From the IMG/VR virus record IMGVR_UViG_2874962485_000008: 35,626 nucleotides of DNA; one strand, written 5' to 3'. This stretch comes from a virus. Taxonomy: Duplodnaviria > Heunggongvirae > Uroviricota > Caudoviricetes. A program made the position numbers. The number at the start of each line of letters is the position of its first letter. Positions within the stretch are counted from its first letter, which is position 1. Shown here in pieces: positions 15,001 to 18,000 of the stretch.

Positions 15001-18000
15001 GAACCCTCTCCGCCCCCGCGCCCAGCGCATCATACGACCATGTTGTCATAATGGATGCGCAAAGCGTCTCAACATCCTGAGACTGCTCAGCATTCCACAG
15101 TGAGCGGGAAACCAGCCAGGCATTGATATCCATTCCCATACGCAGAAAAGCAATCTGTCGTTCAGCCTCCGGCAGTTCTCCCTCCTGTGCATCAAACTTT
15201 GCCGTTCGCTGCTGAACAAACGTCAGATATTCAATTCTCTGCAGCCCGGACAGCTCACTGAGCACCACGGACTGTTTTTCATAATTAAACGTATCCTGTT
15301 TCAGAAACATCATGTTCTCCGGATGCAAAAAGCCCCGGATAACCGGGGCAATGATGAGTATCGTCCTGTTATGGTGCGCTGACGGTCACCGCAGCCACTG
15401 CCACAAACTCTCCGTCAGAGGTCATGCCCACGATGCTGACACTGCCCTGCTTCACGCCTTTCACCGTGGCCACAAGCCCGCTCAGGGTCACCGAAGCAGT
15501 CTGAGGATCTGACGAATGCACACTGATCGCTTTGTCACTGGCCCCGTCAGGTTTTACTGTAAAGGTCAGTGTGGTGGTTGCTCCCGCTTTGACACTGACA
15601 GATGCCGGTGCCACCGTCAGTCCGGTAACACCCACGGTTTCAGTGCCTTCCTCTGCCAGATACGGACGCCCCACACCGCTGATTTTCACAGTGCGGGTCA
15701 TCACGTCTTTTGAGGCAATGGTTTTACCCAGTGAGCTCAGCCAGCCGCGGAAAACATCAACAGTGCCGTTGGGATATTTGATACGAAACGCGCAGACTTC
15801 ACCGGAGTCGAACAACTGAACCAGTTTTTTCTGCCCGCTGTCACCCGGACGCCAGGCCAGCGTCGCCGAAGTATCACCAACGGATTTCTGCCCCTGGGTT
15901 GTCGTTTTCCAGTCTGCATCTTCATCATCGAGATAAGTGTCATCTTCTGCATCAGCGGTCATTTCGCCAGGTTGCAGATCCTTCACCATCGCAAGACGCA
16001 GCCAGTCAGTGTCCGACAAAGGGTTCGCAAACGCATCGCCGTTGCCGGTATACATCCAGAACGTCGTCCCCGCACCTTTCGTCTTTGCCAGTGGATTTGG
16101 TGTGGTCATTACCACCTCCTTAATTCGTGTACGTGATCTGGTACGTGATTTCCGCCATCGCCCAGGTGGCCATCTCATTATCACGTTGATAGTTAAAACC
16201 GAGTGGGATCATGGTGTCGATGAGTCCGGAAAGCACCGGAATATCCTTCATGGCCGGAAATATGGTGTTCTCCATCCACGTATCCAGCTCAGAATCCGGC
16301 GCCTGTGCACGGACGAAAACGGCAATATGCAGAACAGCCTGCCAGTCGTCCTCATCCGTCATTTTTCCGGTGTACTGCGCATCACTCAGCCACACCGCCA
16401 CGGCGGGCAGTTCCTGCGCATCAATAAATGCCGGAAGCCCGTCAAAAAACGTGGCGCTGTCTCCACACTGTTCCCGAAGGCGTGCCAGCACGCTCTGACG
16501 GATTTGTGTGTGTCGGTTCATTTACTCAGATGTAACCTCAGTTGTTGTTTCAGGGCATACCCCAGCTGTTTCGGCATTTCCGCAGCAATGATGCGGTCGC
16601 GGGCATCTTCAAATGCCTGTGTCAGCGGTCCGGACATCGGGATTTTCACCACATCAATGGGGTAACGATTTTTGCCGTCAATACGCCGCATCACATGCCA
16701 GCGACCATTCGCCAGTTGCTGAATAAACGCATCCCGGAAAAGGTATTTCCCCACTTTCAGTACGCTGCCACGATGACGTGAGTTGCTGCCATGCCGGGAG
16801 CGGGCCAGTCTGACCTGTGCGGTACCCAGCTTAATGGCGGGCAGGTTACCCCGGTTAACACGCATGCGGGCATACATTTTTCCTGAGGGGCTGGCTTTAA
16901 GCAGCCTGACACGCTCCCTGACCGTTTTCAGGGGAATACCTTTCACCTGGTTATCCCCGGCAACGGTATTCTGCGCAACCTGCCGTGTGGCGACAGAAAC
17001 AATCTTTGCCGCCACACGGTTTACCGCCCATGCGCTGGTCTGTGGCACCATGCGGGTATCGAGGCTGTTCAGATTGCGGATGGCATTCTCAAGTCCCTTC
17101 ATCATATCGCCTCATTCTGGCATTATTCTGTGGGGCAGGACTGCCCCGCCTTAACCGGATATAACAGCATCCCCCGTCATCCGGAGTAATACGATCCACA
17201 AAGAAAGAATCATCCCCGATAGTTAACGTATCCTGACGGCGTAACTGCGATATATCTGCCGTTTTCACAAACAGGCACGGTGAGGAATCCTCAAGCCGGA
17301 TCCCCCCGGCAACAAAAGAAATACTTTCGGGATCATCAAAAACCCCTGTCAGGTGTGTCCCCTCAAGTTCTCCGGACGTAATGACGGCGCTGATCCCCAT
17401 ATCACGGAGAATGACTTCATTGACACCGGCAAGCGCAGCATCAAACAGATTATCGAAACCGTCCACGACATCTCCTGTTACTGCCTTTTTGCCAGACCAC
17501 CTGCCGCCATGCTGGCAGCCACCTCAGCAGAAACACGAAACGACGTTCCCGGTGAAACAAATATCACTGAACCATTACATTTTGTATGCAGTGTCGCCAG
17601 TGCCACCACCGTAACCTGCCCCGTTTCGTCTCCGGTAACAATGCCTGGCTGTTCAGGAACTGACTCGCCTTTATGCGCGGTCGGATCATCTTTCGATGGT
17701 GAGTACGTATCCGGCTCTGCGACCTCCCCCGCATCTCCAAGCTCTTCCTCCAGTTCCGCCACTCGCTGCGCAATATCTGCCGCACTACCGGAGACATCCG
17801 GTTCACGCCCCAGCCTCTCAGCCAGCTCACAAAGACGTTTCAGGTTTTCTTCTTTCGTAGCCATACCCGCTCCTGATTGAATGAAAAACGGGAGCATTTA
17901 GCTCCCGCTCACGGATTATTTCACCTGCACCACCACAAACTCATCCGGATCCGGCAGCACCATCAGCGGCGCGGACTGCGTCATGGTGAATTCACGCGCC

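Follow-up and report, generated by a model that had tools for sequence, protein, structure and literature searches.

Two short stem-loops stand in the late operon of a lambda-like prophage, one directly after the major tail gene V and the other directly after the major capsid gene E. We consider, tentatively, that both are genuine and selected structures which would serve mainly to protect the 3' ends of the corresponding messages, with at most leaky termination, in a late mRNA that is predicted to be antiterminated by Q. The prophage was analyzed on a stretch of 35,626 nucleotides (IMG/VR virus record IMGVR_UViG_2874962485_000008, Caudoviricetes), referred to below as the window. Its late operon lies on the minus strand, and the gene identities were taken from PHROGs and Pfam searches. 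Hairpin A occupies the spacer between V, encoding the major tail tube protein, and G, encoding a tail assembly chaperone; hairpin B occupies the spacer between E and FI, which encodes a DNA-packaging chaperone. That the hairpins are selected and not random is indicated by the combination of a structure beyond chance, a position in the approximately 1.5% of the sequence that is spacer, the recurrence after E and a pairing kept through sequence change. A role at the RNA level is favoured over termination because the hairpin, and not the run of U that follows it, recurs across lineages.

Structure of the two hairpins

Hairpin A (15349..15332, minus strand) begins 19 nt after the TAA stop codon (15371..15369) of the V gene (15369-16109, minus strand; phrog_41, E 3e-122). 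It reads GCCCCGG-UUAU-CCGGGGC, i.e. a 7-bp stem made of GC pairs only and a 4-nt loop, and a U5 run (15331..15327, minus strand), read as UUUUUGCAUC, lies directly 3' of the stem. The G gene (14924-15313, minus strand; phrog_42, E 5e-52) starts at 15313 or 15310, 18 nt beyond the hairpin. The z-score of the folding energy is -3.9, and this energy was matched by 1 of 200 dinucleotide shuffles. Hairpin A is also the top-ranked site of a consensus terminator scanner. Among 83 related loci, variation of this element is limited to the innermost pair and the loop, and the run of U on its 3' side counts 5 to 7 residues.

Hairpin B (17909..17887, minus strand) begins 7-8 nt after the TAA stop codon (17918..17916) of the E gene (17916-18944, minus strand; PHROGs major head protein, E 2e-193). 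It has the form (A)GCGGGAGC-UAAAU-GCUCCCGU(U), with a stem of 8-9 bp closed by the 5-nt loop UAAAU. Seven Watson-Crick pairs (17907-17901 with 17895-17889) are extended by one G-U and one A-U pair. A U5 run (17888..17884, minus strand) follows, whose initial one or two U are able to pair with the stem base. The start codon of FI (17478-17864, minus strand; phrog_92, E 5e-39) is at 17864, preceded by AGGAG, and lies 23 nt beyond the hairpin. The z-score is here -4.9, and none of 200 shuffles matched the folding energy. The consensus terminator scanner did not pick up hairpin B, because its greedy extension of the stem through the G-U and A-U pairs consumes the U-run and leaves too few U for the tail. 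Negatives from this scanner should not be taken as absence. An extended fold of the E-FI spacer, in which UCCGU pairs with GCGGG just after the FI Shine-Dalgarno sequence, was considered as a means of masking the FI ribosome-binding site; it is weak and not conserved in the phage 21 or lambda types, and was rejected.

The initial annotation of this DNA had reported, between 15326 and 17906, a GC-rich stem-loop with a U-run on the coding strand within 20 nt after both V and E, and the next genes starting just beyond. All of this is borne out by the distances to the two stop codons and by the G and FI start codons at 15313 and 17864, and the interval brackets both elements, from just past the U-run of hairpin A to the 5' arm of hairpin B. 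The free-energy calculation that it proposed as a check did not find weak stability, with -16.2 kcal/mol for hairpin A and -16.0 kcal/mol for hairpin B.

In both hairpins the stem is GC-rich and no shorter than 5 bp, the loop falls within 3-8 nt and the energy is strongly negative, as in an intrinsic terminator. On the minus (coding) strand, the stem of hairpin A leads straight into UUUUUGCA and that of hairpin B into UUUUUCAU, U-rich tracts that are counted here from the last GC pair. Judged by these features, A and B are good intrinsic terminators on the coding strand. A bidirectional terminator was rejected, the plus strand being without a T-run after either stem. The two stems show no sequence relationship, and no Rfam family was found at either hairpin in a gathering-score search of the whole window or in a permissive search of 15200-18050, where the one match was at chance level and on the other strand. 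A known Rfam RNA family or a dispersed repeat of the repetitive extragenic palindromic (REP) kind was rejected on these grounds. Processing by RNase III was rejected as well, as the stems are just 7-9 bp long; stems of this length are judged too short as substrates of this enzyme.

Terminator-like sites along the late operon

Our own scan, which detects both hairpins, set four conditions: the stem must have 5 bp or more, the loop must span 3-8 nt, the energy must not exceed -10 kcal/mol, and 5 U or more must occur among the 8 nt that follow. On the coding strand from J to the large terminase gene, four such sites were counted versus 0.3 expected (about 13-fold; none of 200 dinucleotide shuffles reached this number). 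With the limit set at -14 kcal/mol in the same stretch, three sites remain versus 0.06 expected, which again was reached by none of 200 shuffles. The three strongest sites are hairpins A and B and a hairpin in the I-J spacer (9242..9219, minus strand; -21.4 kcal/mol with flanks, z -4.4). All three fall in about 280 nt of non-coding spacer, i.e. the 1.5% already mentioned of 18.9 kb, a share computed from the hairpin positions of our scan and the coordinates of the open reading frames (ORFs). The chance of finding three of the four sites in non-coding spacer is of the order of 1e-5.

Further terminator-like hairpins with U-rich tails are located on the minus strand directly after J (5700..5681), after lom (5025..5004) and near the end of the tail-fibre region (2866-2887). 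The pair on either side of lom fits an independently expressed inserted gene. The sole terminator-like site inside a coding region (20813-20834, minus strand) belongs to the C protease/scaffold gene, where it lies in the 5' part, just past the portal end; it reads GAGCCCGCC-UAUGCG-CGGGUUU followed by ucuuuug, with -12.0 kcal/mol. In the D-E spacer of the window, the hairpin (18973..18994, minus strand) is weakened: compared with the stem of the phage 21 type, UCAGGCCACC/GGUGGCCUGA, it carries a mismatch inside the stem, and no U-run follows.

Hairpins downstream of D, E and V in related phages

The survey of the regions downstream of D, E and V covered 240 related loci, drawn from phage records, from IMG/VR and from bacterial contigs with one genome per species. 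Each D, E or V stop codon was anchored by tblastn, and the best downstream hairpin was taken. After E, a hairpin of -10 kcal/mol or lower is present in 33 of the 35 distinct regions, and the remaining two reach -9.6 kcal/mol. These hairpins are built on at least five mutually non-alignable stem sequences: the window type (GCGGGAGC/GCUCCCGU), that of phage 21 (GCGGGGGC/GCCCCCGU), that of lambda (AUGGCCC/GGGCCAU), that shared by N15 and phi80 (GUGGCCC/GGGCCAC) and that of Gifsy-1 (AAAGGCCUGA/UCAGGCCUUU). Phage 21 has the closest version of hairpin B, unannotated in its record, whereas the likeness of the N15 and lambda hairpins to hairpin B is one of position only. One pair of the stem is A-U in the window type and G-C in the 21 type, both sides having changed, and the population variants of the 21 type are mostly wobble-compatible. 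Among lambda-type E hairpins, both partners have changed in a single pair only, which is C-G instead of U-A in three sequences. The run of U is far less constant. A run of at least 4 U adjoins the stem in just 5 of the 33 E hairpins; in the 21 type a U6 run lies 3-5 nt off the stem, and the N15 type has CUUUCUGG.

The V-G spacers fall into two classes. Spacers of 9-15 nt without a hairpin were found in 23 of 54 distinct regions, including many enterobacterial prophages and lambda, 21 and phi80, whose spacers measure 10-15 nt. In the other class, the spacer measures 34 nt or more and holds a GC hairpin, which reaches -10 kcal/mol or lower in 27 of the 54 regions. The extra length of the V-G spacer is thus essentially the hairpin. 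About 15 independent V-G hairpin types can be told apart, and a U-run accompanies four of them only: the window/mEp460 type and those represented by loci L176, L187 and L188. About 10 of the types are devoid of a U-tract. In N15-like types the stem runs directly into the ribosome-binding site of G, e.g. CGGGGC-AUAC-GCCCCG followed by cccacGGAG. A hairpin follows D in 29 of the 34 distinct regions. With its U7, the lambda/N15 type, kept across distant hosts, is a textbook terminator, and it is between D and E that lambda-type phages have their best canonical terminator; the 21 type is without a U-run, and the window's own copy has acquired the mismatch described above.

The initial annotation had suggested conservation at the same positions in lambda as a check. 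A hairpin does follow E in lambda, with a stem that cannot be aligned to that of hairpin B, and none follows V. More generally, a hairpin directly after the major capsid or major tail gene and before the next ribosome-binding site is found in the window, N15, mEp460, Ayreon, Gifsy-1 and, after E only, lambda and 21. Both types are frequent: among 5426 complete Escherichia coli genomes, the V-G type is present in 1836 and the E-FI type in 1523. These modules are very common in E. coli, yet standard genome annotation leaves the hairpins unmarked.

Several surveyed loci (L193-L207, L211, L214 and others) are short low-coverage contigs in assemblies of Kitasatospora, Neobacillus, Shewanella, Pseudoxanthomonas, Methyloglobulus and other unrelated bacteria. 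They share 54-56% identity to the V protein of the window, and the V proteins of L211 and L214, the representatives checked by tblastn, are 98-99.6% identical to lambda V. These contigs look like lambda DNA contamination of the assemblies.

Possible roles in a presumably antiterminated operon

The Q-modified polymerase of lambdoid phages resists downstream terminators. At the head of the late operon of the window stands a Q antiterminator gene (28777-29193, minus strand; PF06530, E 6e-54), and between it and a tRNA cluster lies a tR'-type terminator, AACCCGCC-UCCG-GGCGGGUU followed by a U-run (28689..28670, minus strand), the presumed target of Q. Q gene and terminator upstream of the late genes correspond to the pR'-tR' arrangement of lambdoid phages, and because of them the polymerase that transcribes the late genes should largely ignore hairpins A and B. 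In phages encoding Shiga toxin (Stx), Q allows polymerase through tR' and across the late genes.

We propose that during lytic growth the Q-modified polymerase would read past the hairpins most of the time, and that these would act mainly on the RNA, as stable 3' caps blocking 3'-to-5' exonucleases. Such a cap would take effect once the long transcript has been cut downstream, or after a minority of termination events, and the message segments ending with E and with V would outlast the downstream segments that begin with FI and with G. As a secondary role, the hairpins could stop polymerase that lacks the Q modification, e.g. in a lysogen. The effect on protein ratios would be modest, with translation initiation as the main determinant. 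Protection of upstream mRNA from exonucleases by 3' stem-loops is known from the REP elements in malEFG and from the hairpins of the Rhodobacter puf operon. As would be expected of an exonuclease barrier, a hairpin at the 3' end of the favoured cistron recurs after E, D and V, with or without a U-run. A broader proposal, which we hold to be possible and rather less secure, is that lambdoid phages conserve a short GC-clamped hairpin behind D, E and V whether a U-tract follows it or not, and that these hairpins would be barriers to mRNA decay and not terminators, prolonging the messages of the most abundant virion proteins. If this is true, it would constitute a general layer of stoichiometry control for lambda-like late operons, in which antitermination takes control away from transcription.

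Several points weigh against this role in message protection. The stabilisation itself is inferred from what 3' stem-loops do in general. Within the lineage of the window, the U-run of hairpin A is kept at 5-7 U in the 83 loci, as expected under selection for real termination, and Q-modified complexes may not be fully terminator-proof. The hairpins that also follow I, J and lom are not predicted by a role specific to abundant proteins. The covariation is thin, as the five core GC pairs of the lambda-type E hairpins are invariant. For the V-G hairpins no formal covariation was obtainable: consensus folding of 20 spacers failed, MAFFT having set the 3' arm of one type against the 5' arm of another. 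Finally, the operon is cut by an insertion sequence (IS) and its portal gene is split, and in this particular prophage the hairpins may be relics.

The initial annotation read the two hairpins as sites of partial termination that set the stoichiometry of major versus minor virion proteins. As leaky intrinsic terminators, they would stop some of the late-operon polymerases after E and after V, leaving less message for the genes of the minor proteins. We regard this as plausible in principle, yet rather unlikely to be their main effect. The part that stands is the terminator anatomy, with GC-rich stems of about -16 kcal/mol, a U5 run directly after each and the U-run maintained across the loci related to hairpin A; moreover, close relatives mark the element as a rho-independent terminator, partial termination has precedents in Tphi of T7 and in T_J, T_F and T_G of phiX174, and it is one possible role named by the authors of a study on phage L. 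Its place as the main factor is put in doubt, as the operon carries Q antitermination and its polymerase should resist terminators. A hairpin that sets a protein ratio would be expected wherever the same ratio is needed, and this is not what was found: lambda, 21 and phi80 build the same tail without a hairpin after V, as do the other members of the 23 regions with short spacers, and most of the V-G types, like most of the E hairpins, are without the adjacent U-tract. Lambda-type phages have the canonical U7 terminator between D and E, although the D and E proteins are used in near-equal copy numbers. The hairpins after I, J and lom also count here, as elements of this kind are not specific to high-copy genes. 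The relative expression of the lambda late genes was, moreover, reportedly attributed to translation initiation in work by Sampson and co-workers from 1988.

A further explanation, to which we give still less credence, is that the hairpins are fail-safe terminators. They would have no effect on the Q-modified polymerase and would stop spurious or read-in transcription not begun at pR' with Q, keeping the structural genes silent in the lysogen and in early infection. Prophages must keep their late genes silent, terminator-like hairpins mark several gene boundaries (those behind E, V, I, J and lom), and the phage L authors proposed such a function. However, it leaves unexplained both why hairpins return after D, E and V in lineages whose stems cannot be aligned and why many versions are without the U-tract needed for termination. 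Least probable of all is that the hairpins have no function of their own and hitch-hike as leftovers of recombination joints or of lost morons with their own terminators: the E-FI spacer does lie at a mosaic joint and the prophage is decaying, with its D-E hairpin degraded, but a hairpin is found downstream of E in 35 of 35 distinct regions despite the non-alignable stems, pairing is kept through both-side and wobble changes, and the spacers contain no ORF.

Context in the prophage

The E-FI spacer is placed at a mosaic joint because the similarity to lambda stops about 18 nt before the E stop codon. In the tail module, Z through T, identity to phages mEp460, cdtI and Ayreon is about 92%, and in the head module, E through FII, identity to phage 21 is about 85%. 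Four tRNA genes (Met-CAT, Arg-TCT, Thr-TGT and Gly-TCC; 28267-28577, minus strand) separate the tR'-type terminator from the holin gene, a placement shared with Stx-type lambdoid phages. Downstream of the tRNA genes come those for holin, lysozyme, a small terminase remnant, large terminase, W, portal, C (protease; 19386-20891, minus strand), D (19002-19349, minus strand) and E. After E, the order is FI, FII, Z, U, V, G, T, H, M, L, K, I, J, lom and the tail-fibre genes. A 209-residue ORF between the holin and lysozyme genes (27126-27755, minus strand) has no Pfam domain, and its PHROGs matches are only of unknown function (phrog_1085).

The late operon is interrupted by an IS3-family element (24908-26064, minus strand) with transposase ORFs at 25762-26064 and 24908-25726. 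Of the small terminase gene, only the C-terminal part is present (24557-24880, minus strand; profile positions 87-189 of 199). The portal gene, of the lambda family, is split into two overlapping reading frames (20881-22474, minus strand), of which 21419-22474 covers profile positions 2-288 and 20881-21504 covers positions 288-354. This split points either to a frameshift mutation or to a sequencing error. With an IS element in the small terminase gene and a split portal gene, the prophage looks defective and decaying, and it is probably unable to package DNA. In the early region, a group II intron (32473-34086, minus strand; Rfam Intron_gpII match at 32473-32559, 64.9 bits) contains an ORF with reverse-transcriptase and maturase domains (32563-34086). 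It adjoins replication genes encoding a DnaB-like helicase (29699-31090) and a DnaC/IstB-like ATPase (31087-32064).

Comparison with known systems

Hairpins A and B belong to an already-known class, the intra-operon 'terminators' after the D, E and V homologues that have long been noticed in many lambdoid phages. The records of mEp460 (NC_019716, 8751-8774) and Ayreon (MF807953, 8742-8782) carry a "rho-independent terminator" exactly at the V-G hairpin, and both have another terminator annotated after the capsid gene. This is the same element as hairpin A: the region is 91-92% identical and the stem GCCCCGG/CCGGGGC is identical. In N15 (NC_001901), stem-loops described as "putative rho-indep. 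transcription terminator" follow genes 7, 8 and 13, which are homologous to D, E and V. In the phi80 record (JX871397, 1485-1540), the annotated FI start is a GTG inside the post-capsid hairpin GUGGCCC-UGUC-GGGCCAC; N15 has the same spacer, and its FI start is an ATG 36 nt further on. The FI start of phi80 is probably mis-annotated.

The study on phage L, a P22-like phage, predicted that a terminator closes the procapsid module within the late operon, and its authors offered two options, either partial termination or the stopping of transcription begun without antitermination. As in the window, this terminator is predicted beside capsid genes in an antiterminated late operon with a single promoter, but phage L is a P22-like podovirus without sequence relationship to the window. 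Because of this paper and of the annotations in the relatives, both the observation and the idea of partial termination are already on record. The two elements thus mean little in terms of discovery, partial termination after a major structural gene being an old idea. The pattern to retain is that a hairpin invariably follows E and may or may not follow V, and that often no U-tract accompanies it. This pattern raises a question for lambda itself, namely the role of a terminator-shaped hairpin in an operon whose polymerase ignores terminators. A preprint that mapped Hfq-associated RNA interactions in lambda by ligation and sequencing (RIL-seq) reported small RNAs at tL2a and near the 6S RNA, and nothing at the E, V and D hairpins. 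A paper on SPP1 and a transcriptome study of a Pseudomonas phage contained nothing specific on the matter. A Term-seq data set (GSE143631) exists for the enterohaemorrhagic E. coli strain Sakai, host of many lambdoid prophages.

In T7, the terminator Tphi lies directly after the major capsid gene 10, and RNA-seq coverage falls downstream of it. The likeness to the window is that of a hairpin right after the most abundant structural gene within a long late transcription unit. However, Tphi acts on T7 RNA polymerase and its effect on RNA has been measured, whereas the window would be transcribed by a host polymerase that is expected to be antiterminated. The terminators T_J, T_F and T_G of phiX174, with an efficiency of 40-60%, and T_H, with 90%, shape the transcript ratios of that phage. 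Like the window's hairpins, they follow structural genes and concern the host polymerase; in contrast, phiX174 has no antitermination system, and its termination was shown experimentally.

For the protection of message ends, which we favour, the nearest likeness is with the REP elements of malEFG and the puf hairpins. Unlike REP elements, A and B are mutually unrelated, do not belong to a dispersed repeat family and have no Rfam match. In both of these systems, as with A and B, a stable hairpin stands at the 3' end of the cistron that is needed in larger amount, and the protection would be independent of a U-tract, which matches the U-less hairpins of the window's relatives.

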